From: Strigamia acuminata
Taxonomy: Eukaryota
Length of the DNA: 64,000 nucleotides
NCBI GenBank assembly: GCA_949358305.1
Contig: OX442314.1
Location: forward strand, 27,528,001-27,592,000
Direction of reading: 5' to 3'
The position numbers and the translations under genes were made by a program. Below, piece by piece: positions 2 to 62,732 of the stretch (position 1 is the stretch's first letter; each line of letters begins with the position of its first letter). The notes under the pieces were generated by a model. That model was not told the DNA's origin and made no database searches. It worked only from the letters and a program-made list of their open reading frames with translations.

Positions 2-826
2 GGAAAAGCTAGGCCCACACCTGAAATCACTGAAGGATCAGATAAAATTGATTTACCTGGTCTTGATGAATGTATTGAAAAATTACTGGCTACAACATTA
101 GTCACTAATGATTTATTGGACGAATTACCATTGGATCCGCCGATAGAAATTAAACCACCGCGACGTTTTAAATGCAAGTACGCGGACATACCAAACAGCA
201 ATGATTTGCCGACGATTCGATTGCAGACGGCAAACGGTATGATAACAGGGATGTTAGACTCTGGAGCTAATCGAAGCTTCATGGCCTACTCCGTAGTAAT
301 TTCACTGAAACTGGAAGATGAAATTCGACCAATTGGACCGGATGTGAGAGTTACGACTGCTTCAGAAGATGTAGTCCCTGAAGGAACTCTCCTACTTTCT
401 TTTGCGTGGACACACGGGATGTTAAGTCATCCATTCATAATTTTAAGAAATAAATATCCTATTATTTTATTAGGATGTGATTTCATGAATCGACTCAATA
501 TTCAACCAAATCCTAAGACCATGTCTTGGAATTTTGTCAAGTCTTTGAAAGAAGATTTACCTTTTGTTCCTCAAGCGATTCTTGATCGTTATCAAGAGTT
601 TCTTGATCCACCCGAAGAAATCATGAAACGCGACTTTATTAAAGCAAATCACATGAAAGCTGGTTCCGCCACTGCATGTCAAGCTAAAGTTGCCGATGAA
701 GAAAATATAGTACAAAGACTTGTTAGCGACGCTAATTTGTCAATGGAAAATAATTTAATGCTTGAAAGAGTATTAAAGAAACATGAAAAGATTTTATCAC
801 GCCGACCAGGTAGAACACCTCGTTAG
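2..826 (+). CDS. pol: Retrotransposon aspartic protease region of pol (5'-partial)
   Basis: The frame is open from position 2. It has the catalytic motif MLDSGA and a downstream ILLGCDFM (ILGxDF) motif. It ends ...SRRPGRT, where homology continues in the next frame. Confidence 0.9.
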   Translation, partial: GKARPTPEITEGSDKIDLPGLDECIEKLLATTLVTNDLLDELPLDPPIEIKPPRRFKCKYADIPNSNDLPTIRLQTANGMITGMLDSGANRSFMAYSVVISLKLEDEIRPIGPDVRVTTASEDVVPEGTLLLSFAWTHGMLSHPFIILRNKYPIILLGCDFMNRLNIQPNPKTMSWNFVKSLKEDLPFVPQAILDRYQEFLDPPEEIMKRDFIKANHMKAGSATACQAKVADEENIVQRLVSDANLSMENNLMLERVLKKHEKILSRRPGRTPR

Positions 827-3800
827 GCATGAAATTAAACTGGACACTAAAGTTCCTATTAGAGTTCCGTTTAAAAGCGTAAATCCACAGAAACGTGAAA
901 TTATCCGTCAAATCTGTCAAGATATGTTGGATAATGGGTACGTTGAACAAGCCACTGGAGACTATGGGATGCGAATAGTTCTAGTGATGCGTCCGGATTG
1001 TGATCCGAGACTATGCATTGATTTTAGACCACTCAATGCACATACATTATACGACCCTCCTCAAATGCCCAGCATTGAGGAAATCTTGCGAGAACTCGGA
1101 AGGTTTGAATGGGTCACAACAATAGATTTGTCAAAAGGCTATTGGCAAATAGAGGTTCATCCGAATGACCGTGCTAAAACTGCGTTTTGGAGCCCTTTGG
1201 GTCGACTTCAATTTCGAGTCATGCCCTTTGGTCTCGTAAATGCGCCGTCAACTTTCCAAAAGTTGATAGAAAAAATTTTGGGGGACGCCTATCGAAAATT
1301 CGCATGGGCATACCTCGATGATATAATTATTATATCAAAAAATTTTGAAGAACACATGATTCATCTGGAAGAAATTCTGAGTAAACTTGAAAATGCAAAT
1401 CTTCATGTTCATCCAGAAAAATCAAAATTTGGCAGAAAAGAATTAACTTTTCTTGGTTACAAGTTAAGTGTTCAAGGAGTTAGTGTCGACCCTAAAAAAG
1501 TCGCAGCTATTAAAGAAATGCCAGCTCCTTCGAATTTGAAAGAGTTGCAAAGATTTTTGGGAATGGTGAACTTTTTTCACCGATTACTTAAAAATCTTGC
1601 AGTAATGACAGAACCTCTACGTCCTTTACTCAAAAAGGATGTGGAATTTATTTGGTCAGAAATTCATCAAGAAGCTTTTGATCAAATAAAAGATGCTTTG
1701 ACAAATGCAGAAACAATGGCCATGCCTGATTTGACAGAACCATTTATTGTGCATACCGACGCCAGCAGAAAAGGACTTGGCGCCGCGCTTATGCAAATGA
1801 GGGAAATCGATGATCAAAATATAGAAGTGCCTTGTGTTTATGCCAGCAGAAGTTTACAACCTGCTGAGATAAATTACAGCGCCACAGAATTGGAGTGCCT
1901 AGCGGTAATCTGGGCATTACGTAAATTTCGACATTACTTGGAATTTACAACATTCATAGTAAGAACTGACCATCAAGCACTAAAATGGTTGATGCAGTTA
2001 GACGAACCTGCCGGAAGGTTAGCGCGTTGGCAAATGGAGCTAATGCGCTACTCTTTCGAAATACAATATATTAAAGGTCCACTAAATGTTTTAGCGGATG
2101 CTTTATCCAGATCACCGATTGATAAACCGGAAAATCCTGAAGATGATGGAGATAATGATGAATTATTATCTTACTGTCCATCACCACAACGAAATTGGAA
2201 AATGGGAAAATTTCATGAGCTTCCTGTCTCCACGCTGGAGGAAAAGGAAGATCACGAATTCGTCAACTATTGGACTAAAATCTATGACCCCTCTGAGGAA
2301 TCAGATGACGTCATAAGAGCGCAAATTTCAAGGAAATTCCAAGTTCCTTCGTCAAATGTTTTAATAAAAGCATTTGTCGCCAAAATTGTAGAGCGTCTTG
2401 ATTGTGAACCCCCCACAAGGGAAGACATAATCAAGGCCCAAAAAGAAGATAAAGTTTGCCAATTAATGCGTAATTTTTTAAATTGTAATCAATTTCCGCC
2501 TGACGTCACAACGCGACTCCAGAGGAAACAATATAGAAAACACGCAACCACCTTCTTAATTGAAGATGACTTATTAATGCAATTTCATCCCACAATGTCT
2601 GATGAATTGGGGGAGGATGGGAGAGCACTCAAAGTTTTTGTACCTCAGACATTGAAGTATAAAATTATTTGGCTAATGCATGGCCACCCACTTTCTGGCC
2701 ACCCAGGAATTGCAAGGACTCTTTATCGAGCACGCCGAATTTATACCTGGAAAGGCATGAAATCGGACATTACAAGATTCATTCGACATTGTGAGCGTTG
2801 CCAAGCTTGCAAGCCTCGAACGAAAGGACAAATTGAAGCAGCGCAAATGGGTCCTTACAGCCCATTTGACTGCCTAAGTGTTGATTTGACCGGCCCGAAA
2901 CCTCGGACGCGCAAAAACAACACACATATTTTAGTCATACTTGACGTGGCAACTCATTGGCCAGAATTATATCCAATGTGTAACCCCACTGCTGGAAAAG
3001 TGGCAAATTGTATTTATCACCTTTCCATGAGCATGGGATTCCCTCGTAAAATTATTTCTGACAACGGCCCGCAATTTCGTGCCCAAGTCTTTAAAAAATT
3101 TTGTGAAAAGTTCAAGATGGTTCCAACACCAACTTCAACGTATCACCCACAAGCTAACCCGGTTGAAAGGGTTAACCGTGACATCAAATATTTGGTTGCA
3201 ATTTATTCATCGGTTCATTCCAAATGGGACGAATATTTGCGTGAATTTGCATTTAGTTTGAGAACTACGGTGACGAGAGGAAGAGACTTCTCTCCCGCAT
3301 TTCTTAACTTTTTTCGCGAACTCAGAGTACCTTGGGATCCAAGAATACCTGAAGGAATTTTGGTCGTAGATCCAAAAAACCCACATTTATACGTGCAAAA
3401 ATTAGAAGCCGTTATCGCCGAAACATATCAGCACATGATGTCACACGTGTTAGATTTGCGTAGACGAGTTAATCTTAAAAAAGAAGGTGAGAAGTTCTCC
3501 AATTTTAAATTAAACGATTTAGTTTGGAGAGATTCTCATGTTTTGTCGAGCGCTGCCCGCGGCATTGCAGCTGGCATCGCTGATAAAAGAACAGGACCAT
3601 ATGTAATAACCAAAGTATTACAGGGAGGATCCGTAGAATTGAGAAAGCTAGAAAATAACGAAATATTTCCAGCTGTCCATTCGTCTGAATTAACTCCGTA
3701 TTTCCCGAGTTTCGATCAGGAAGTATGGTTAGAAGGCGAAGAAGTCGGTCAAAAGACTGAAAATATAATTAATACGTTAGATGACGATGAATTAAAGAAA

Positions 3801-4205
3801 ATACCTGTCGATAATTCATCCAAACCACAAATGGAGTCAGACCTCGTGAATAACGACGTTGAACTTCGTGACAGTTTCAAAAAGCTTGAAATTGCTAAAA
3901 AATTAAATAAAAAGGTGTTTTTAGAAAAGAAACAAAAAACATCTGAAATAAAAGACTCATCTGACTCAGTCTCCGATGACAATGAAGACGGCGATTTAAA
4001 TACAATAAATCCCTCGCCGACAAAGAGATATAATCTTCGGACTCGTAAACCGAGAGGAAAAAACAACATGTGTCTTCTCCCCTCGATAACCTCGAGATCC
4101 AGGGATCAGCCGTATGACGTAAGGAGCAATTCCTCAAGCCATACTCAAACCAATCAAACAGTAAGATTGGATGACGTCACTAACAGCGACGTTACCCAAA
4201 CGTAA
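783..4205 (+). CDS. pol: Gypsy Pol: reverse transcriptase, RNase H, integrase (continues the protease ORF after a frameshift near 817)
   Basis: RT motifs RLCIDFRPLN, IDLSKGYWQI, MPFGLVNAP, YLDDI. RNase H motifs TDAS, ELECLA, TDHQAL, ADALSR. Integrase HHCC zinc finger (HGHPLSGH...CERC), D-D-E motifs (SVDL, SDNG, VER) and a GPY motif. Confidence 0.97.
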   Translation: MKRFYHADQVEHLVRHEIKLDTKVPIRVPFKSVNPQKREIIRQICQDMLDNGYVEQATGDYGMRIVLVMRPDCDPRLCIDFRPLNAHTLYDPPQMPSIEEILRELGRFEWVTTIDLSKGYWQIEVHPNDRAKTAFWSPLGRLQFRVMPFGLVNAPSTFQKLIEKILGDAYRKFAWAYLDDIIIISKNFEEHMIHLEEILSKLENANLHVHPEKSKFGRKELTFLGYKLSVQGVSVDPKKVAAIKEMPAPSNLKELQRFLGMVNFFHRLLKNLAVMTEPLRPLLKKDVEFIWSEIHQEAFDQIKDALTNAETMAMPDLTEPFIVHTDASRKGLGAALMQMREIDDQNIEVPCVYASRSLQPAEINYSATELECLAVIWALRKFRHYLEFTTFIVRTDHQALKWLMQLDEPAGRLARWQMELMRYSFEIQYIKGPLNVLADALSRSPIDKPENPEDDGDNDELLSYCPSPQRNWKMGKFHELPVSTLEEKEDHEFVNYWTKIYDPSEESDDVIRAQISRKFQVPSSNVLIKAFVAKIVERLDCEPPTREDIIKAQKEDKVCQLMRNFLNCNQFPPDVTTRLQRKQYRKHATTFLIEDDLLMQFHPTMSDELGEDGRALKVFVPQTLKYKIIWLMHGHPLSGHPGIARTLYRARRIYTWKGMKSDITRFIRHCERCQACKPRTKGQIEAAQMGPYSPFDCLSVDLTGPKPRTRKNNTHILVILDVATHWPELYPMCNPTAGKVANCIYHLSMSMGFPRKIISDNGPQFRAQVFKKFCEKFKMVPTPTSTYHPQANPVERVNRDIKYLVAIYSSVHSKWDEYLREFAFSLRTTVTRGRDFSPAFLNFFRELRVPWDPRIPEGILVVDPKNPHLYVQKLEAVIAETYQHMMSHVLDLRRRVNLKKEGEKFSNFKLNDLVWRDSHVLSSAARGIAAGIADKRTGPYVITKVLQGGSVELRKLENNEIFPAVHSSELTPYFPSFDQEVWLEGEEVGQKTENIINTLDDDELKKIPVDNSSKPQMESDLVNNDVELRDSFKKLEIAKKLNKKVFLEKKQKTSEIKDSSDSVSDDNEDGDLNTINPSPTKRYNLRTRKPRGKNNMCLLPSITSRSRDQPYDVRSNSSSHTQTNQTVRLDDVTNSDVTQT

Positions 4206-4250
4206 CTTCCGGTATTTGAACTGATCACTTCGCGTCTGAGTTCACTTCGA
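4115..4250 (+). promoter_or_regulatory. Candidate internal promoter for the accessory gene
   Basis: TGACGTAA 4115-4122, CCAAT 4150-4154, ATTGG 4166-4170, perfect CRE TGACGTCA 4172-4179, ETS-type ACTTCCGG 4205-4212 and Inr-like TCACTTC copies cluster at the pol stop. Motif evidence only. Confidence 0.4.
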
Positions 4251-4413
4251 TCTCACACGTGTGCTAAGTGCTCATCTCCGAAAAACCAAAAGCGAAACAA
4301 CTGGATAAATTCTCCCGAATCTTCAATTGTAAGTAGTTTTTTCTTTGGAATTTTCCAAAGAAAAACTAATAAATTAATTTTCGTTTTTCTTTCCATTTGG
4401 ATTAGTCGTTCAA

Positions 4414-7243
4414 ATGGAAGGAGAGGAACCGAAAGAAGGAAGCGAAGCCGGCGCCAACAGCCTCGAATTAGAGACAAATTCGACGCTGCTTGGTTCCGCA
4501 AACACTTCGAATACATCCGTGGATGTCACCGAAGAATCCGCCGAAGCGTCCGCCGAAGCTCAAGCCGCTCTGGCCGACGCTGCTGCCCGTTTGCCAGTCG
4601 CGCCGCCCCGACTACGAGGAGGCCTATTCGCCGATCCGAACGGCGAAACTCGTGCACAGAGACACGACCGGGTAAATAATTCAAAATAAAATTACCTTTC
4701 AGTCATGAAAAGTAATTAAAAGTGCATTTTCACTCGGAAAAAGCGAAAAGTTCGTTGGTAACGCCTTCGCAAGAAGGCGCCGCCATTTTTATCATCAGAT
4801 GGCGCTGTGTCTCATTTTTGAGGCGTTGCTACGGCAACGCTCCAAACACTGAAACATAGCCGTCGGAAACAACGTTTTTCACGATTTTTCAAACATTTTG
4901 AAAAATTTAACGAATCTAAACTGTCGAATGAAATCTCACCCGTGATTTTATTCACTGAAAATTCGGAAATAATTAATTTTAACGAAAAAATGGATTTTAA
5001 TTATTTCTTCGAATATTTTACAGATCATCCAGCTTCGGGAGACGCATCTCGAACTACACCCCGATGTTCCAACAGCTCCTGGTGTCTGGCGACATGCATT
5101 GCCGCCAGAAATCATAAAGTCTAAGGGAAGACTGACGTTTTGGGCGGCCCGACATAAATTCTCCAAGGCCCTAAACAAGCGATGGGGAACGAAGTTTCGG
5201 ATCGCTTATTTAATCGATGGATTCGGTCATCGCGACGCCCTCGAGTGGGCAATGAAGCGCGATACCTTCGGACCACTGCGAAACGTGTTGCTCGACTTCG
5301 CCTTCACAGTGATCAATCAAGAAACGCGAGACCATCGCCGTTACTTCAACGCTCCTGCGTGGGAGCGTCGACAGATTTTGGAGGACATCTTCCAACGTCT
5401 TGACCAAACCAAGGCCGAGGTTGTGCGCCTCTACCACGAATCCTTCCGTGTGACTACAGACGGAAAGAAACGTTGGGTGCCGACATGCCAGTCGGAAATG
5501 CATCAGCTAGCCATGGGCGGATGTTTCCATGCTGATTTCGTGCCAAACCCGTATCCAGAGCCTGAGCCCCGGGTACAGGTCGCTTCCACCATCCACGTGG
5601 TGCCACCGCGCTCCACGTCGAGGTCACGATCATCGAGGTCGCCCTACAGTGGCCGTCGCTCCTCCCCAACACAGTCGTCGGGGGAAGGCGCCATTGGAGG
5701 GTTACCTCCACTCCAGAAGGCTCGTCATCGCTCACATCACCGACGCGAGTCGACGCCGCCAAAAAGACATTCGAAGTCCGTGTCGAGACCCACATCCCGA
5801 AGCCGACCTCGAGTGCAATCGCGCCAATCTTCCACGAGGAGTTCTCTCTCATCGCGTGAAGAAAGGTCCAACGCTTCACAGCCTAGCGCTTCCTCCTCCG
5901 GCCGAATTGACTGGTTGGACGAGATAGCGAAGGAAGATCGTCGCATCGCCGCTTTGCAAGCCGGTCAAGGAGACGTCAACACCTCTTTGCCGTTCGCTTG
6001 CCGTCCAGTCACCAGCGACATGCGACCAGACCCATCGGTGCCCGTGCCACAAGTGACATCGGTCATCCGTTTTGAGGGATACGTCTCTCAAGAACCGTTC
6101 CCAGCACAGGAGTGCGCTGATCTCTGGAGGCGATTCTCATCGTTTCCCGAGACAGCCCAAACGATGTACCTCGCGCATCTGGACGAATACCAACTCGCTC
6201 AGATCCGCGAAGGTGAGAAAGAGTGGCAATGGCTTGCCCGAGAGCTTGCGTCGTGCAAGTCCGACAAGCAACTGCAACGGACGCTGCAGAAAATGAACAG
6301 GAAATTGTCGGAGGGACTGCTTCGAATCCTGTTCCAAGGAGTCTTTCCCGACCCACAGATTGCTCTGGCGGCCGCCACTCGATTGTGGACCGTGCCGTTA
6401 GGGCTTCCACGAGCCTTGCTGGACGATTGGGAGTCAATTCGCCCCGATCCTCCAACGATGCTCGCCGAATTGACGCAACAAGCCGAGGCGACTGGCGAAA
6501 CTCCGGCTGGATCCGCCATTCGACTACGGCAGGAATGGGCTGCGCTGAAGCAGCGACGCGCAGCAGAACGAGCTACCGCCCGTCCCGCTGGCGCACCACC
6601 GTCATCCGCAGCTCCACTCCACGCTGCCATCACGGCAACGTCGAGTGTTTCCCGTGCAACCGAGGCACCGAGTTGCAACATCTCATCTCCGATGGAATGG
6701 CTCGACAGCGACGATCGCGAGTTCGTCGTGCCTGTGGCCTGCGGTGCCAGACCAAAGACGCGCACCCCGGCTTTGCGCAGATCCAGATCCCTCTCGATCT
6801 GCAAAAAGTCGCCGCCACCGCCGCCTCCTCCAAAGGATTCGCCGCCAAGAGATAGGGGATCGAGTATGGCCACCCACCTCACCGCCTATCAACGTTTGCG
6901 CTCATTATACGCTTTTTGCTACATAACGAGCGCGACGAAAACGATTCTCCAGAACAGCGAGGATTTATGCAACCGAGTCCTCGCGTGGCTGGAAAACCAC
7001 ATCAAGGAACAGCAGCCGTGGATCCTACATCAACGCCTGGTGTTCGCTCGAATTACGCCTCAAGACCCGCAGGAGTATTTCGAGATGGGTTTTGGACGAA
7101 GGGATGGTGTGGACCGCATCAAGCAAGTGTGGCTCCACATCAACCCTGGCTTCCGGTCAGGACCAAACGCCGGCCGACCTTTGTGCACCGTCACCGAGCA
7201 CAAAGATCCAAACGATCATTCGACGGACATGTTGCCGAAATAA
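4414..7243 (+). CDS. Spliced accessory gene of the retrotransposon, join(4414..4671,5024..7243), ~825 aa, Arg/Ser/Pro-rich, unknown function
   Basis: Exon 1 is exactly 86 codons and ends CGG|GTAAAT. The AT-rich intron 4672-5023 ends TTTTACAG|. Exon 2 reads IIQLRETHLELHPDVPTAPGVWRHALPPEII... in frame with the 5099..7243 ORF. No signal peptide or TM anchor is visible. AATAAA signals follow near 7297-7312. Confidence 0.8.
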
Positions 7244-7402: not shown

Positions 7403-7416
7403 AAAAGGGGGGGAAG
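7403..7416 (+). promoter_or_regulatory. Polypurine tract (plus-strand primer)
   Basis: AAAAGGGGGGGAAG lies immediately before TGTGGTGACC. Confidence 0.9.
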
Positions 7417-8480
7417 TGTGGTGACCTCAAATATTCCTATTTGAGTGCGCACCATATTTCCAAATTGTCTTATAAACATATTCAACAAGCTTATATGTTT
7501 TGTTTCAATGTAAATTGAAATAAAACATACATTAATAAAATATAAAACAAGACACAATATTACCCAAATAATATTGTGTTTTGCAGCAAGTTTTGGCCCA
7601 GCAACAGCGTCAACCAATCGCGCTGCAGCGTGCATTGCTTTGATGATGCTGCTAGGCGTGTGCCTGGGCGGAGCATCCCTTCCCCTCGCGCGTGCCCGGC
7701 TCGATTGTTGCACACGACCCGAAGGCGGCCGTGTGTGATCTTCATGCAACTCGTCATCTGCGCAGCTTTTCTGAGCAGATTTAGAAGTGAGCCAAACGGT
7801 TTTGGCCCACTCTTCCCGCATTCTTGATTCTGCTTCCAAACCATTCACATCTGTGTCAAACTTATGCCAACCATTGCTAAGTGTGATCTGTGATATCTGG
7901 AAGAGTTGAGATTCATTGCTGGTCCGTGCCAACTGTACGGAATAGCGCCTTTCTGCTTGAATTACTACGCGTAATTTAAGCCATTTCTGTGTGGAATTGA
8001 CATAGAGCTTGCTCTGTCAATTTGAAGGCTTTGTGTTGAGTTTAACTCCACAAAGCGAACTGTGTTAAGACGGATTGTTACGTCGAGCTTGCTCCGTAAT
8101 AATCACTTTCACTGTGTGTGAGAAGTATTCTCGTGTCGAGCGTGCTCCACGAGGATTTTAGAATATTTAGCAACGTATTTTAGCGTCGAGTTTACTCCGC
8201 TAAAATCCCGCGCTCACACGACGCCGTCGACGCCATCTTGGAGCCAACGGTCAACTGTGAGTGTACATTTGAAGAAGAAGCCAGATCGACCCCAAACATT
8301 TTAAATAATACCTCCTTTGTATTTTGAACGATTAAAACTATCTAATTTTTCCTTTACTCTGTGTAAAATCATTCCCCTAGACAAACATTTGGCCACAGAG
8401 TAGAAGTCCTGTACGGCATCTCTACGACGATTGCTTATTGAATTTACATAATTTAATAAGTAAAAACCCGGATCGCCGCA
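7417..8480 (+). repeat. 3' LTR (~1064 bp)
   Basis: Starts TGTGGTGACC right after the PPT. The proposed end GATCGCCGCA (8471-8480) matches the reverse complement of the start at 7 of 10 positions and ends in CA. The right boundary cannot be confirmed without the 5' LTR. Confidence 0.7.
7995..8206 (+). ncRNA. Array of five bulged RNA hairpins (TAR-like cis element) inside the LTR
   Basis: Hairpins at 7995-8022, 8028-8056, 8073-8104, 8127-8156 and 8177-8206. Each has an 8-10 bp stem, a T-N bulge, GAG, a 4-5 nt loop and CTC. The only stem mismatches are G-U wobbles on the + strand. Confidence 0.8.
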
Positions 8481-9038
8481 ACATGTAAATATGGATAGTG
8501 TGCGTAAATTTATCATCAAAGTGTATCAATCAATTAATATTGTTTCTTATAAATTCTTTTAATTTTTTTTTAAATTAACGTGAAATGAAGAAAACGTCGG
8601 ATGCGCATAAAACACTAATTAGAATTTATAAAAATGTTGCAACAATGTGCTAAATGTGCCCAACATTAATCTCTTTATCCTTTTCGCGGATTGGCTTCCG
8701 TGAAATCCGCATTTCGGGGGCGACTATTCTGGGGATTCCGGGTGGACCAAACTCTTCCGGAAAACGTCCGGGGTGGTGTTGGGAGTGTCAATAGACTGTT
8801 TTGTGTCAAGGTTGTCAATTTTCATGTGAGTATTGGAAGGTTCATTTCTGCACATTCTCATGTATTTTTTTTCACAGGAGCGACAAGGAGCGATGAAGCG
8901 GGATCGAGCGAGAGTGGGTAAAATAAACTGGTTTACGTCTCCAATGCGCGTTCAAGATGGAATACGAACTCGGAATCGACTCCAACACGCGTTCGCGTGA
9001 CATACGGACGCATTCACGACCCAGATCAAAAAATGATC

Positions 9039-55900: not shown

Positions 55901-58900
55901 CTAATTGTTTTAGAATTCCATCGTGTATGAATAATGTTTTTACCATTGTAATTTACATAATCCAACTTACTGCAAATACAGTTACACTGTCTGTATTGTA
56001 AGATATTTCCCATAGTTTTTCTATTGTGAGCTTTTTTTCTTTCAGCAGAAGTAGACTTAATATATGGATGGGACAATCACTTTGACTCAGATTATTTTCC
56101 CCAGCATATGTCTTCTCTAACTTCATAATACTCTTATCCAATACACAAGCTGTTATGTTTGGAAAGCTTACATTTGCTTCGTCTAAGATTGCAGTACTGA
56201 TCCGTATCGGATAGCCCACGTAAGTATTAAATTTGAAGTAGATCATAATCAAAAATAGAGAGATGCAACCGAGATGAACAACTTTTTCCAATAAGTTTTG
56301 AATACGACTACGGCTGCAAATTGGCTCGTTTTGTAGCAGTAGAGATGAGAAATGGCGTTTATTCTTTCGGAGATAACAGCATATTTTGGCGTGAGTTTTT
56401 CTACCGTTCCATGATGTTGCATTACGTTTTTGATAATTGATAATTAATATTATCAAATCCAAAACTGAAAGTATTGACATTCCTAGGTAAAGGTTAACGT
56501 TTCCAGCTGCATCAATGAGAAGATTGAGAAACTCATAAGCAAATCTTTCTTCAACAACATGAATGATATTTGACTCTGCTTCAATCTCGCGTTCAAGCCA
56601 TGGGGAATCTGATGTCATAACTGTGAAGGATTTTAACTCTTCTTCTATTTGAGTACACATTCGGTTACATGAGCAATTTAATTCTGTGTATATGTTAGCT
56701 AGTTTGTGAGTAATGCGCTCGTACAGGTCTCTTGTATCAATTGAAGTATTGCACATGTCGCCTGTTTTTCCACTCATAAATGAAAACCTGTATTTTTAAA
56801 GAATTAAAAATTATTTTGCCAAGTTAATGTGTTTGTCGGTATTTTGCTTGGTCTAACATGCTTGTATTATTTTGGGATTGTTGTTGGGAATTTATGATCA
56901 GTCAATGCCACCAGGGCGACGTATATCACACGATGGATGGTTGATAGTTGGTTTCTAGGTATCACTGGCTGTATAAAACTCAATCAAATGTCGTGCAGAA
57001 CTGTTTAGCTGCCGAAGGACAACACATCGACCAACTACTTAAGTAATATCTAAAAACCAACTACCAACCCATTTACCCACACTTCCTCTCACCCAATTAT
57101 TATCCCGGTGATCAATAATATGCGCAATATTTGTACGCGCGACATGTAAGAATAATTCTTACACCCGATGTCGGTGTGTTTACGAAGATCAGTCCTCGTG
57201 GAGAACACAACCATTCACCGAGCGCGCCCGACATTGATCGCAGAAAGTTGGTCAGTGCTTGTAAACGTCTGGCGAGCGAAACAACCCTTCCTCAGCGCGG
57301 AATTTTTGATGATCAAAGTGCGCTACATCCTGATGGAGCAGAGTTAGTGTCGTTCGGCGAAATTGAGAGTAGTATGTCCTATCGTCGTAAACATTCGCAA
57401 CCACCAATTCCGCAAACGCCTGAAGAATTTGATGAATTGTTGAATCAGCATCCCGTCCAAGCGACAACAATCAACTCACAAATTTTTTATCGTATTACTC
57501 TACGCCCAGATAATGGCGGAATTTTAATTGTGTTTGTTTCTGATGGTTTGTTGCAGGCTTTAGGTGCGTCGAATACTTTGCAGATTGATGGCACGTTCAA
57601 AGTTGTGCCCGGCATTTTTCACCAGCTGTGCACGCTCCATGCACTGGCGCACGACTATGTGTTTCCCGTTGTATACGCGCTAATGTCTCGAAGAAACACA
57701 ATCGCATACACTGCGCTGTTTACCTACATCAAACAACTGGTGCCAACATTGAACCCGGAAGTCGTCATGTCGGATTTTGAAACCGCAATTCAAAATGCCG
57801 TTGCCTCTTCGTTTCCAAATGCGAGAATTGCGGGTTGCTTTTTTCATTTTTCGCAAGCTGTTTGGAAGAATATTCAGCAGCTTGGTTTGCGCAACGAATA
57901 CGAAAATAGCATTCGATGCCATAAGGCCATGCAAATGTGCATGGCTTTGGCATTGCTGCCCGTCGACGCAATGGCCGCTGGCTTACTGAGTATTCGGAAT
58001 TTCTTGAATTTGAACAACATTGCCACACCGCCATTCACTCGTCTGCTCCGATACATTGAAACATTTTGGTTAGGAAGAGTCACGGCACAGCGTTTTTCAG
58101 TTTTCGGGATGATACGGCGGACAAATAACGATGTGGAAAGTTTTCACAGCACGTTGCTAAAACGAATTGGGCTTGCTCATCCGAATGTTTGGCAATTTCT
58201 TCAGAAGCTGCGACAGGTCGAGCTGTCTACACGTCAAGATTTCGTTCGTGCCTCTTCGGGTCTCAAGGTGAGTCGGCTTCGAAAGAAAAAATTTGTTCTG
58301 AGCAACAAGCACATCATTGCTGCGCAGGATAAATTAATTGAACGTCGTATTACCGTGGCGGAATACTTGGAGCAAGTTGCGCATCATGTTCGCGAACCCC
58401 CATTAGTAACTCAAGACGTAGTTGATAATTCACCGCCGGGTTCGCCGCCCGGTTCGCCGCCCGGTTCGCCGCAGGGTTCGCCGCCCTTTTCGCCGCCCGT
58501 TTCGCCGCCAGTTTTGCCGCCAGTTTCGCCACCCGTTTCGCCGCCCGTTTCACCCATTGGACGTACATTACGGAGTGTCCGAGGTAGGATGGCAGCAGCA
58601 AATTCACCACCACCCGCAAATCCAGCGGTTACGCAGCGTGGACGAGGACGAGGGCGAAGGCGAGGGCGAGGGCGAGGGCGAGCGCGTGGGCGAGGACGAG
58701 CTTCGGCAACACTGTAAAGTTTTTGTGTTCGTTTTTTGTCACATTTTCTTATAAGTTAAATAAATAGTTTCAATTTTTTCAAATTTTTCGATTTTTGTCA
58801 ATTTTTTAAGTTTTTTCGATTTTTGTCAATTTTTTAAGTTTTTTCGATTTTTGTCAATTTTTTCGAGTTTTCAATTTTTTTCGATTTTTCTTCAAATTCG

Positions 58901-61900
58901 CGTTTTCTTAATTTCGCGTTTTCTTTTTTCTAAATTTTTTTAAAATTTTGCTGCATTTCGATTCGCGATTTCTTTTTTCGCGATTTTATTTTTCGCGATT
59001 CCTTTTTTCGCGCCTACTTCGATATGAAAAAACAAATCCCGATTTTCGCGATTCATTCTTTTCGCGCTTTCTTTTTTCGCGATACATCCGCCACCCCATG
59101 TCGCGCATATGAATAGCACTGCCATGCGTTACTGCAATATCGCCCGTTATGAAACATTTAACTTAAGATATCTAAAATAAGTACTAATTTGATGGTGCTC
59201 TACAACTTTGTAATTGGAAAGTTTGCTGTATCTTAAACGGTTTAAAAGTTAGCAAGTGAATGACCTTGAAAATGACCTTCAAGGTCAAATTTGATGATGT
59301 CATTGGATTGCTCTCACCCAACTTCCTATACGATCGCTTCATCAAAGTTGGCCTAGATGCAATTGCTCAGGAAATATTTGGAGGGAACCAGACTTTTAGG
59401 ACACCCTGTATAAAGTGATTCCTTACCTGCAAACTTGCTGACTGTAAAAATTTTCAAGGCATTTCTTGTGGCAATTGGTGAAATCCTTTTGATCAATGCA
59501 TGGATTAGATGGAGTATTCAAAAATTTGAACTAAATAATTACATACAATTACATACTTTAGAGACTGTCATTTCACATTTCAGCGAATATTCAAAAAAAT
59601 AAATGTATTTAATTTTAATAATGAAAATTTGAATACATTTATTGAAGAAATTTAGTACTCTTGCAGTAGAAATCTTAGTTTAGCCACAATAGCTGGCTTT
59701 GGTTCAGCTTATTTGTTTTCATTTTAAAAAGAAAACATTTAACTTGAGATGACTTATGCATGGTTCACACTTGAACCACTTATGTAGAAGTGTGACTTTT
59801 AGAAAGTCTAATTTCTACAAGTGTGAATTTGACTGTTCACACTTATTCATTAGTTATGTAGAAATCAGTGATACAATAATGCAATAATGCTGGTACATTA
59901 ATTTATTAGGGCTAACTTACACACTGAAAGGTAGGGGTTTGCATTTCAACTTGCAGCTAATGAACCATTAAAGATAGAAACCTCTGCTTTTTTTTAAAAG
60001 AAAGACAGGTGTTTCCAGACTTTTGACTCACCCTGTATATATATTTTGATAAAGGGGCCCCGAAAAAATCTCAAGCCCTGGGCCCCCAAAAAGCTATATC
60101 CGCCCCTGAATACTCCGTTTACATGCATGGAATATTTTGAATGAGATGAAATATTCCGTGTGCACACTGTCATGTAAACAGGGATGACAAGGATTATTCG
60201 AGTCGTGAATAATCACTCACAGAAGGTCGTTTAATTCGAGTAAACTCGAACTATTTTTATTGCGCATGCGCACATTGCTTCCTGTTTAGTGCCATTTCCT
60301 GTTAAAGTCTTAAGTAAAGTTAATACAATATACACATTCTCCATTTTATTGATGAGGAATAGGTAAATGTGATCTGGTTTCCTTTTTTCACAAAAATATA
60401 TCACTTCAGGTTTTAGTTAAACCTGGAACTTCCTGTTGTGATCACAAATTATTTTCTGCAAGTAAACTCAACAATTTGATTTTTTCACCACTGAAATTAT
60501 TCACCACTCAAAATATTCGGTGCATGTAAATGTAGTATAAGCGGGACATAAAATATATTTATAGTAGTATTATTTTTGATTATTGTTGTTAGAACTAGCT
60601 AATCCAGTTCACAGAACTAGATTATTTTATCTAGTTTCAAAACTGACAAGCTAGCTTAGGATAAGCTAGTTGTGTTCGCACTACATTTATACAACTAGTT
60701 ATAAAGAGTTAAGCTAGCTTAACTTTGTAGTGCGAACGGGGTATAAAGATGTTTCATAGCAGCTATAGTCTTAGGAGCCTGTTGCCCACGGACGGTTTAG
60801 TGATGGCTTTTGTTAGATTTTATTGTTGTAAATTGTCATTAGTTCAACGTTTTGTTAGAGGTTATAACGTTTGCGACACGTTACGCGCGTGTCATTTTAT
60901 TGTTGTAAAAACTGTTTTCTGAAGAGTAAAGACATGTTATTTTCTGTTCCGTTAACGTGTGGTCTTTCATTTGATTTGGACATTCGAAATACAACAGCTT
61001 TCAGGCAGTGTCATGTCCCTTTCTCCATCGTCCTAGGTTTTACATTGGAAACCACAACTGTAAAATAATGTGATACGGGTAAATACCTTTCGTAAACTAA
61101 ATTTACTTCTTATTATTTGATTTGAGGACAAAGGAACTAATTCTGTAGATAAACCTGGAATAGGTGATGACATCTACAAATTTAATAAATTTTAATATTT
61201 GAAATTTGTTTTTTCCATTATAATTACTATATATTTACGTAAAGGATGCCTGGGTCACAGAATATTGGTTGATTGAACCACATTTTAAATTTACCGAATA
61301 TGTTTTGTCCCTTAACATTTTCTAGGAAATATGAAATGACTCTGTAGTACCACTGAACCATTTAGATATATTTGTATTTATACAGATCATAGCTTACCAA
61401 CTGTTATCACAACGGAGGTTCCACAAGTGGACAATTCGTTTTTTATTTGAATATTTGGTTTGTTCGTTGATTTCTGTAAAAACTCTGCTGTTTTATATTT
61501 CAGTTGCCAAAATAAATTGAGCTTTCTTTACCGAAATAAATTCAGTTTTGTTTAAAACAGAAGAATCGATATCCCATAATGCAGACATGTTGACATTCCC
61601 ATTTTCAATTAATCTCATTATGTTGTTAGCACAATCGCCTGCATTTGCTGGTGTTGAGTTTAAAATATTTTTCCACGCATATCGTGTGTATGTGTTTTCA
61701 GACATGCATACCTTCAAAGCTGGGAATGACATCTCAGTTTCATCACTCGTGTACGCATCAGTAGTGATGGGGTTTGAAAAGAAATATTTGATTTTCTGCC
61801 CAGTTTGATAGCAACAGGTTGCAAGGCAGCTCATTAAAAGTAAGCTCCAAACAAACTTGATTTTAATGCCTTTTGTGGGATCAATTAACGTTTGTATTTC

Positions 61901-62005
61901 AGGAAATGAATCCTCAAATAAGAAAAGGCGTGGCATTTGTTGTTGTATAATTTTACGGAGTTTAGACTTTACCGCAGCTGCATTCCTTTTCCTTGCAATC
62001 CTCAT
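52999..62005 (-). CDS. Multi-exon DEG/ENaC (pickpocket/ASIC-like) channel gene with two tandem channel modules
   Basis: Exons read by eye: 61532-62005 (TM1, PITT, FPALKVC); 61398-61473; 59427-59530 (NPC...NCHKKCLENFYSQQVCR); 55971-56787 (CSCNRMC, TM2 GNVNLYLGMSILSV, then a second TM1 and FPNITAC); one ending near 55434 (NTSSGVCTQY); 54283-54389 (CKKQCYRKKLNEKLTCR); 52999-53374 (CQCHIPC, GNILSLSLGLSILSV). Several small exons are unresolved. Confidence 0.85.
57131..58717 (+). CDS. Mutator (MULE) DDE transposase, probably 5'-incomplete
   Basis: Motifs GEHNH, IDGTFKVVP..FHQL, MSDFE, GCFFHFSQA (CxxH) and RTNNDVESFH. The ORF starts at TTG, and no complete N-terminal zinc finger is evident. Confidence 0.92.
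   Translation: MYARHVRIILTPDVGVFTKISPRGEHNHSPSAPDIDRRKLVSACKRLASETTLPQRGIFDDQSALHPDGAELVSFGEIESSMSYRRKHSQPPIPQTPEEFDELLNQHPVQATTINSQIFYRITLRPDNGGILIVFVSDGLLQALGASNTLQIDGTFKVVPGIFHQLCTLHALAHDYVFPVVYALMSRRNTIAYTALFTYIKQLVPTLNPEVVMSDFETAIQNAVASSFPNARIAGCFFHFSQAVWKNIQQLGLRNEYENSIRCHKAMQMCMALALLPVDAMAAGLLSIRNFLNLNNIATPPFTRLLRYIETFWLGRVTAQRFSVFGMIRRTNNDVESFHSTLLKRIGLAHPNVWQFLQKLRQVELSTRQDFVRASSGLKVSRLRKKKFVLSNKHIIAAQDKLIERRITVAEYLEQVAHHVREPPLVTQDVVDNSPPGSPPGSPPGSPQGSPPFSPPVSPPVLPPVSPPVSPPVSPIGRTLRSVRGRMAAANSPPPANPAVTQRGRGRGRRRGRGRGRARGRGRASATL
57131..59089 (+). mobile_element. MULE element in the ENaC-gene intron 56788-59426, antisense to the host gene
   Basis: The transposase is followed by T-rich tandem repeats and TTTTCGCGAT subterminal repeats ending ...GATACATCC. 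No matching left TIR was found. Confidence 0.65.
60111..60537. mobile_element. MITE-like element with imperfect TIRs
   Basis: TACTCCGTTTACATGCATGGAATATTTT and AAAATATTCGGTGCATGTAAATGTAGTA are near reverse complements. Confidence 0.55.
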
Positions 62006-62732
62006 TGTGTGAACGCAAGAGACTTGATATTTCTGTTTGAAAAATGTTTAAACCTTCCTGTATGTTGTAGTTTACTGTACAGTACGTGTGTGTGGGTAAT
62101 ATATATTCTTACACGCTTGTGAATATGTATATATCAACGATTATCACAACCACAATTAATGTTATTCAACAGAACTAATTCAAATTTGATTATACAGTAT
62201 ATAATTTTAATAATTATACACCAGCATTTCATTTTACAAACAAATCAATTGTGCTTATACATAATTTATAAGAAAAATAAATTACAAAATTAATGTAATT
62301 CAACGACAATATAATTCTTACTAGAATCCAATGTGAATGCTTGGTCTTATAAAGTCTGCACCTGATACCAAATTCAAACACTGAATCCATATTTTTGCAC
62401 TTGACTGAATAGTGTCATTACCGGTACCTGTTCTTTTTTTATGAAATTTATGTATTTGTTGCATCTAAGTGTATGCAGCGCAAGAGTGTATGTATGTTCG
62501 TGTATGTATGTTCGAAATAAAAATCAATTGTGGGAGAAATTATGAATTCAATTTTAAGTGTTAGGTAGCATTTGAAACTTAGTTATTTGTAGCGATAATT
62601 ATGAGTTGTCTGTGTGAAGGGAATATCCAATAGCATATATTAAATTTTCTAGAAAAATTTTAAAAATGTAAATTTCTTAAAAAATAATTAAAAATGCAAC
62701 TCATACAACCATATAATTTAAATTATCATATA

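Follow-up and report, generated by a model that had tools for sequence, protein, structure and literature searches.

Can an LTR retrotransposon direct the fate of its own RNA through a response element and a protein of its own? Circuits of the Tat/TAR and Rev/RRE type are regarded as marks of complex retroviruses, and the nuclear exit of intron-containing Gypsy RNA is largely an open question. LTR retrotransposons offer one export protein as precedent, CERV, for which the available portion of PMC10309623 names no RNA partner. The question is raised here by a 64-kb stretch of DNA (the window), in which a sequence-only reading had picked out five TAR-like bulged hairpins in a Gypsy LTR and proposed the element's accessory protein as their ligand. 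Our analysis indicates that the array exists as an RNA element under selection and that the retrotransposon itself encodes a plausible partner for it; to date, a single family in a single species is known to carry it.

The element and its hairpin array

The element is a Ty3/Gypsy (Metaviridae) LTR retrotransposon, with the order protease, reverse transcriptase (RT), RNase H (RH) and integrase, a polypurine tract followed by a TG...CA LTR, and repetition in the genome. All of its features described below lie on the plus strand. The window begins inside the protease frame (2–826), with the 5' half (5' LTR, PBS and gag) lying upstream. The Gypsy-type pol (777–4205) shows, in the order usual for Gypsy elements, the Pfam domains RVT_1, RT_RNaseH, Integrase_H2C2 and rve. 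The stop of the protease frame and the opening of the RT frame overlap (815–826), and this copy is interrupted there. Most of the named Pol relatives come from arthropods and fish, the best RT-RH identity being 46% among the 119 database proteins kept; a FastTree of RT-RH pairs the element with P0004 (support 0.93) without linking it to a named clade, and no close relative of the RT was found in viral contigs. A polypurine tract is seen in the sequence at 7403–7416 and is followed by the 3' LTR (7417–8480, TG...CA, 1064 bp). The LTR ends are marked by a contig that starts at 7418, by the X6 record, which diverges after 8480, and by a drop in depth after approximately 8480. The summed depth of public contigs from one organism is hundreds of times higher over the LTR than over the flank; such depth is not a copy number, and the element family is clearly repeated in the genome.

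The five hairpins are positioned at 7994–8206 inside this LTR, at the place and with the letters first described. Hairpin 1 (7994–8023) is comprised of a 9-bp lower stem, a UA bulge and a GAG/CUC upper stem, with an A-U pair under the bulge. Hairpin 2 (8028–8056) has an 8-bp stem and a UU bulge, whereas the remaining three have UC bulges on stems of 10 bp (hairpin 3, 8073–8104), 9 bp (hairpin 4, 8127–8156) and 9 bp (hairpin 5, 8177–8206). They are not back-to-back, as had been stated, being separated by gaps of 4, 16, 22 and 20 nt. All five follow the pattern purine-U-N-GAG-Y..R-CUC, and the pair under the bulge is G-C in four of them. An additional covarying pair joins the outermost bases of each loop (C-G in three hairpins, U-A in two), and with this Y-R pair counted in, the apical loops are 4–5 nt long; the TAR-type hexaloop, which is the cyclin T1 site, is absent. 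In 5/5, as in the TAR core, a purine pair is topped by a U-started bulge and then by G-C, A-U and G-C pairs. An 11-bp hairpin at 7957–7981, immediately upstream of the array, has no bulge motif.

Scanning both strands of the 64 kb for U-N-GAG-loop-CUC with a lower stem of at least 4 bp resulted in five matches, all in the array and all on the plus strand. A looser motif gave the same five only within the element and 5 scattered matches in the remaining 55 kb. A covariance model of the five hairpins found no sixth copy in the window, where the five copies score 37–43 bits (by construction) and anything else 18 bits or less. Folding of the array region, a check that the sequence-only reading had proposed, gave the five hairpins on the plus strand with an MFE of −74.3 kcal/mol and a z-score of −4.08, reached by 0/200 shuffles. 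When the whole of 7868–8480 was folded the hairpins persisted, with the three GAG/CUC pairs at probabilities of 0.67–0.99. The minus strand of the array region also scores z −3.78, without the five-hairpin fold, and the choice of strand is therefore not settled by the z-score alone. This strong minus-strand folding, together with the shortness of the TAR core and the palindrome-rich regions that PMC4728375, in the text available, describes in Sirevirus LTRs, speaks for an alternative in which the array would consist of palindromic factor sites acting at the DNA level, or of neutral local duplications, with a likeness to TAR that arose by chance.

The position of the array in the transcript is suggested by the absence of AUG triplets. 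The last 613 nt of the LTR (7868–8480) contain 0 ATG on the plus strand compared with 10.3 expected, and 11 CAT in the same stretch; from 7994 onward there are 0 compared with 6.8 expected (P = 0.0005). The upstream LTR part is mildly depleted, with 6 ATG compared with 11.4. We read the AUG-free part as a scanned 5' leader, the presumed R-U5, with the start site consequently upstream of the array, and transcription is likely to start near 7870–7990, where we take motifs at 7871, 7913 and 7981 to be Inr-like. By consensus match only, a candidate major splice donor, which would work in the 5' LTR, lies 50 nt past the array (8257–8262) and a candidate poly(A) signal, ATTAAA, precedes a U-rich tract (8331–8336); AATAAG at 8455 is an alternative candidate signal. 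With the start upstream and the donor and poly(A) candidates downstream, the array is likely to be in R of the transcript, which would place it at both ends of every transcript, spliced RNAs included. A 14-bp AU-rich hairpin close to the LTR's 3' end (8431–8463) hides the AATAAG and resembles a poly(A) hairpin; a listed variant, 8447, falls in its loop. A GCCAT motif just past the array (8232–8239) is presumably YY1/Pho-like. Two more motifs that we take to be of this kind lie at approximately 4775–4805, in the intron of the accessory gene, and could mark an internal promoter.

Selection acts on the plus-strand RNA structure of the array

In the alignment of the five copies 98.3% of the cells pair, with 7/12 pairs altered on both sides, whereas slid-structure controls pair at 43–51%. 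The covariation score is 0.80 compared with 0.28 for shuffled alignments (0/500 shuffles reach it), for a structure that was derived from the same five sequences on which it was scored. Between hairpins the 5' arms have 1–5 of 8 letters in common and 3–7 double-sided changes per comparison, consistent with the original observation that the lower stems differ in sequence and all pair.

Variation among other copies of the family, taken from public contigs, was placed on the structure as 40 listed rows and one for 8004; the latter appears in one variant listing and is absent from a second. The sample covers 3 runs from 2 studies, all on one species and perhaps with the source of the window among them, and contigs lose rare variants. 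Three weaker rows lie outside the mapped set and by their tallies look like transversions, their place not being given. No site varies among the 35 positions of the bulge U and GAG/CUC core (0/35) or in the loops (0/21). Variable sites make up 7/90 positions in the lower stems, 22/62 in the linkers (core versus linker, P = 2e-5) and 4/5 at the second bulge base (8004, 8037, 8137 and 8187, in hairpins 1, 2, 4 and 5). The invariance of bulge U and GAG/CUC, first noted within the one array, thus extends to other copies of the family.

All 7/7 listed stem variants still pair on the plus strand. Six create a G-U pair (8018 and 8020 in hairpin 1, 8054 in hairpin 2, 8104 in hairpin 3, 8149 in hairpin 4 and 8182 in hairpin 5, the pairs of 8054 and 8149 reading U-G), and one converts G-U to A-U (8077, hairpin 3). 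Read on the minus strand, 6/7 of the same changes are A-C mismatches. Under a null model of transitions only, 48/90 would stay paired, giving 7/7 a probability of 0.012, and across the LTR all four kinds of transition occur at roughly equal frequency. At CpG sites made up of the bulge C and the next G, C>T variants are listed and G>A variants are not. Inspection by eye of contig rows with loose ends reveals more hairpins, with other stems and loops and the same core. ADAR editing was considered as the origin of the A>G stem variants and rejected, as A>G is common in the linkers too, and the pair-breaking T>C and G>A changes are missing from the listed stem variants while common elsewhere.

Selection therefore acts on the plus-strand RNA structure of the array among copies of the family, as the sequence-only reading had proposed from the five hairpins. 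The DNA-level explanation introduced above is largely refuted and highly improbable. It does not account for stems that share 1–5 of 8 letters and yet all pair, for G-U tolerated on one strand only, or for an asymmetric bulge with one fixed and one free base, and true tandem or palindromic arrays found in metagenome and viral loci look different. Among these, L054 has no bulge and is strand-symmetric, and L146 is a 45-nt near-identical repeat.

These loci come from motif scans of 35 viral and at least 120 metagenome loci, which revealed no true array among the matches listed; stem filtering, and a run of the covariance model on all 155 loci, left tandem or palindromic repeats only. L102 and L133 are minisatellites with a unit of approximately 41 nt that can fold into a similar bulged hairpin, and were ruled out on their near-identical tandem copies and the lack of a fixed Y-R loop pair. 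L079, a Gypsy-like metagenome locus, has an 18-nt minisatellite (7905–8560) upstream of its ORFs and on the wrong strand. Database and metagenome searches found no relative of the element in another species. The full-text literature searched, which holds few subscription journals, reported in its accessible text neither a TAR-core array in a Gypsy LTR nor a response element there with a defined protein partner.

Candidate partners encoded by the element

The spliced accessory gene proposed at 4414–7243 holds. Exon 1 (4414–4671, 86 codons, 258 nt) is acidic and begins at the first ATG after an acceptor at 4405. A donor GT at 4672 opens a GT-AG intron of 352 nt in phase 0, and exon 2 (5024–7243) contributes 739 aa to a predicted product of 825 aa. 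Exon 2 has a GC3 of 0.60 compared with 0.35 for pol, and its protein has an RS-like region (residues ~195–290) and a helical domain (~360–520); a CX4HX6CXH stretch at residues 155–169 might bind zinc. The long protein matched no Pfam family and had no homologue among 7993 candidates, no match in 1.84 billion representative sequences, no metagenome locus (75 pattern matches, 0 confirmed) and no usable Atlas match. The full-length structure model is poor (pLDDT 39). The middle domain was modeled as a helical bundle (pLDDT 70), for which Foldseek returned no match at E ≤ 0.001 and the best VIA match, at Z 6.8, is uninformative. The densest arginine stretch of the long protein, 4 Arg in 9 residues, is RS-like and not of the Tat/Rev type, and a leucine-rich NES pattern gives five loose matches. 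The proposal that an accessory protein of the element is the ligand is thereby weakened for the long protein, which lacks a Tat/Rev motif, and is better fitted by a second frame that overlaps its first exon.

This Arg-rich ORF (4206–4679, 157 codons stop to stop) is in frame with pol, which it continues past a single stop (4203–4205). It overlaps exon 1 of the long gene in the −1 frame and has no AUG of its own. Two arginine-rich motifs (4419–4472 and 4527–4580) contain 7 Arg and 1 Lys in 12 residues and 9 Arg in 17; the frame has 28 Arg compared with 17 expected (P ~ 1e-4) and also carries several cysteines. The probability that the −1 frame is open is ~0.004 given the acidic protein and the codon usage of the gene, or 0.001 with pol-weighted usage, and 0/25 stop-prone junctions end in T compared with 14/60 other junctions. 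The converse is unremarkable, since the acidic frame would be open with a probability of 0.57–0.82 given the Arg-rich frame. As a measure of chance openness, 184/653 exon-2 windows of 86 codons are also open in the −1 frame. These statistics are post hoc and derive from one copy, itself interrupted at the protease-RT junction, and they suggest that the Arg-rich frame is under apparent selection. Its predicted product is a better ligand candidate than the long protein. No homologue of the Arg-rich ORF was found among 255 candidates, and inspection of its exonic part by eye showed no clear leucine-rich export signal.

How this frame would be expressed bears on what the array may do. The AT-rich intron end at 4206–4405 contains 0 stops in the Arg-rich frame compared with 5 and 6 in the others (P ~ 0.016), as expected if the frame is read from unspliced RNA. 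Such a continuation of pol past one stop would suit an integrase with an Arg-rich C-terminal extension which, or alternatively Gag, would use the array as a packaging or particle signal to select and condense genomic RNA. The pol stop, however, sits in a GT donor at 4202, which agrees in phase with the 4405 acceptor, and there is an in-frame ATG at 4068, an arrangement that fits splicing as well. Furthermore, an array in R and upstream of the likely leader donor would also be carried by spliced RNAs, making it poor for selective packaging, and we regard this explanation as distinctly unlikely. Splicing, read-through, or extension of pol in other copies remain as routes of expression for the predicted Arg-rich product.

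Comparison with known systems and mode of action

In the accessible text of PMC6189040 the arginine sandwich of TAR consists of a U23·A27-U38 triple with contacts to G26 and G28, and the text available of PMC6140463 states that two-nucleotide bulges work in TAR and that UU bulges support activation. The conserved letters of the array are those that this motif needs, with the second bulge base as the free letter, which bears out the earlier match of the hairpins to the arginine-sandwich core. By analogy with TAR and 7SK, each U-N bulge would form a U·A-U triple that holds an arginine on the first G, and the five hairpins are likely to be a multivalent response element with a TAR-type arginine-binding core. 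The array shares with the TAR of HIV-1, of HIV-2 and of SIV the purine, the U-started bulge and the following G-C, A-U and G-C pairs, and with HIV-2 TAR the two-nucleotide bulge and repeated hairpins; an LTR location, for the array likely in R, is also common to both. In contrast to TAR, it is comprised of five separate hairpins with unrelated lower stems and 4–5-nt loops, probably not at +1, in a Gypsy retrotransposon as the host. An Rfam search returned 11 chance-level matches at E ≤ 10, none of which came close to the gathering score, with no TAR family among them. Because the TAR loop and Rfam tests fail, the array is not a member of the TAR family.

The ligand is very probably an RNA binder that uses arginine, and it is probably encoded by the element itself, although the evidence for RNA selection leaves the ligand unnamed. 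A host RNA-binding protein with an arginine fork could serve instead, in transport, translation, stability or mimicry of 7SK/HEXIM, with the ORFs serving otherwise. The arginine sandwich is also a host motif, occurring in 7SK according to the accessible text of PMC6189040, and 7SK SL1, the site of HEXIM and Tat, resembles the array in having several sandwiches in one RNA. In 7SK these share one helix with a GAUC core, whereas the array has one per hairpin, a GAG/CUC core and a mostly preformed G-C pair. The preformed G-C, present under the bulge in 4/5 hairpins, is in the same text the form that lost HEXIM binding, and a HEXIM decoy was ranked low. Considering also the apparent selection on the Arg-rich frame in the same element, a host ligand appears fairly unlikely.

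Among element-encoded ligands, one that acts as Tat does would bind the array on the nascent leader, recruit P-TEFb and release paused polymerase. In favor of this, the core matches TAR, with GAG/CUC above a U-started bulge, and HIV-2 TAR is a multi-hairpin RNA with UU bulges (PMC10970485 and PMC6140463, in the text available). The AUG-free leader would bring the array close to the 5' end, the Arg-rich frame, a small one, encodes several cysteines, and the presumed YY1-like site at 8232 lies just past the array. Against it, a single TAR site or a pair is enough for Tat, and there is no TAR-type hexaloop for cyclin T1. TAR sits at +1 to +59 (PMC6189040 and PMC10970485, likewise), whereas the first hairpin of the array may be as far as ~80–125 nt from the start. 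The Gypsy precedent, CERV of the C. elegans element Cer1, is described in the available portion of PMC10309623 as acting in export and as dispensable for transcription; splicing produces it from a second reading frame. Taken together, a switch of the Tat/TAR type seems rather unlikely.

We favor a module resembling Rex and Rev, in which the predicted Arg-rich protein multimerizes on the array and protects and exports unspliced RNA, and assign this reading a tentative probability of about 0.4. The Arg-rich frame would be spliced onto the pol tail or onto an exon further upstream, or translated as an extension of pol, and its product would bind the array and act on export or splicing rather than elongation. 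Assembly on the array would hold back splicing and export the full-length RNA, as Rex does on HTLV RxRE, with the long RS-containing protein as a possible cofactor or second regulator. Splice signals implying a need for export are predicted, from sequence and phase, at 4405, 4672, 5023 and probably 8257. Control of export or splicing is preferred over elongation because five sites suit multimers and the cyclin T1 loop is missing, and because RxRE and RcRE are placed in U3-R, where every transcript carries them, and CERV is an exporter.

The closest parallels are HTLV Rex/RxRE and HERV-K Rec/RcRE. Both RxRE and RcRE map to U3-R and are part of every transcript, and multimerization is required of Rex (PMC3434621 and PMC3185809, in the portions available). 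As here, these systems have a structured element in the LTR and regulatory frames that overlap 3' of pol; as is predicted here, the element is carried by every transcript and bound by multimers of a small protein with an arginine-rich motif. The five sites of the array would suit such assembly. The differences are that RxRE is a single 255-nt four-stem fold and not a set of equal hairpins, and that the Gypsy element has no env, no sequence homology to these systems and a predicted partner without an evident export signal. The core of the array is closer in sequence to TAR, the target of Tat, than to any checkable Rex site, which counts against the Rex-like reading; Rex aptamers reportedly contain a TAR-like motif. 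Searches of the element proteins gave no match to Tat, Rev, Rex, Rec or CERV, very remote homology being beyond such searches, and the module, although its layout resembles that of Rex/RxRE, does not belong to that family. Cer1, like the present element, is of Gypsy type and has a spliced accessory gene using a second frame. According to the accessible text of PMC10309623, CERV is needed to export unspliced RNA and its exons overlap gag, whereas the frames here lie 3' of pol; CERV contains a Cys loop and a G-like domain, with no recognized RNA-binding motif, and that text names no RNA element. In the Sirevirus palindromes and the SPRE of mammalian endogenous retroviruses, LTR retroelements likewise carry structures or motifs in repeated form. 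In the abstracts of PMC4728375 and PMC8579622, the palindromes evolve fast and attract siRNA and the SPRE are sequence motifs; unlike the reading proposed here, these abstracts describe no fixed bulge motif and no element-encoded ligand.

Overall, the element likely controls its own RNA in the manner of complex retroviruses, and explanations other than those considered are very improbable. On balance we lean slightly toward the broader proposal that an invertebrate Gypsy lineage independently evolved a complete circuit of the complex-retrovirus kind, with a five-fold TAR-core array in R and, 3' of pol, a Tax/Rex-like cassette with two frames that overlap; the small Arg-rich protein from it would bind the array and drive export or elongation of the element's RNA. 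If true, a protein and its RNA response element would be defined as a pair outside the Retroviridae, and the TAR core would have arisen by convergence and not as a lentiviral copy of 7SK. The candidate circuit is small, consisting of 30-nt hairpins and 18-residue peptides, and if the binding is true it would provide a peptide-hairpin pair that is natural and orthogonal. Other LTR families can be screened with the selection signature described above.

Beyond the element, the window contains three tandem units of 14–15 kb that are near 100% identical (~8.7–52 kb). In each, 56-nt and 551-nt repeats occur together with long inverted arms, and the units may be a repeat or an assembly feature. On the minus strand, at 55953–62047, two ENaC/ASC-family gene pieces, which mark the host as an animal, are located around a MULE transposase ORF (57119–58717).
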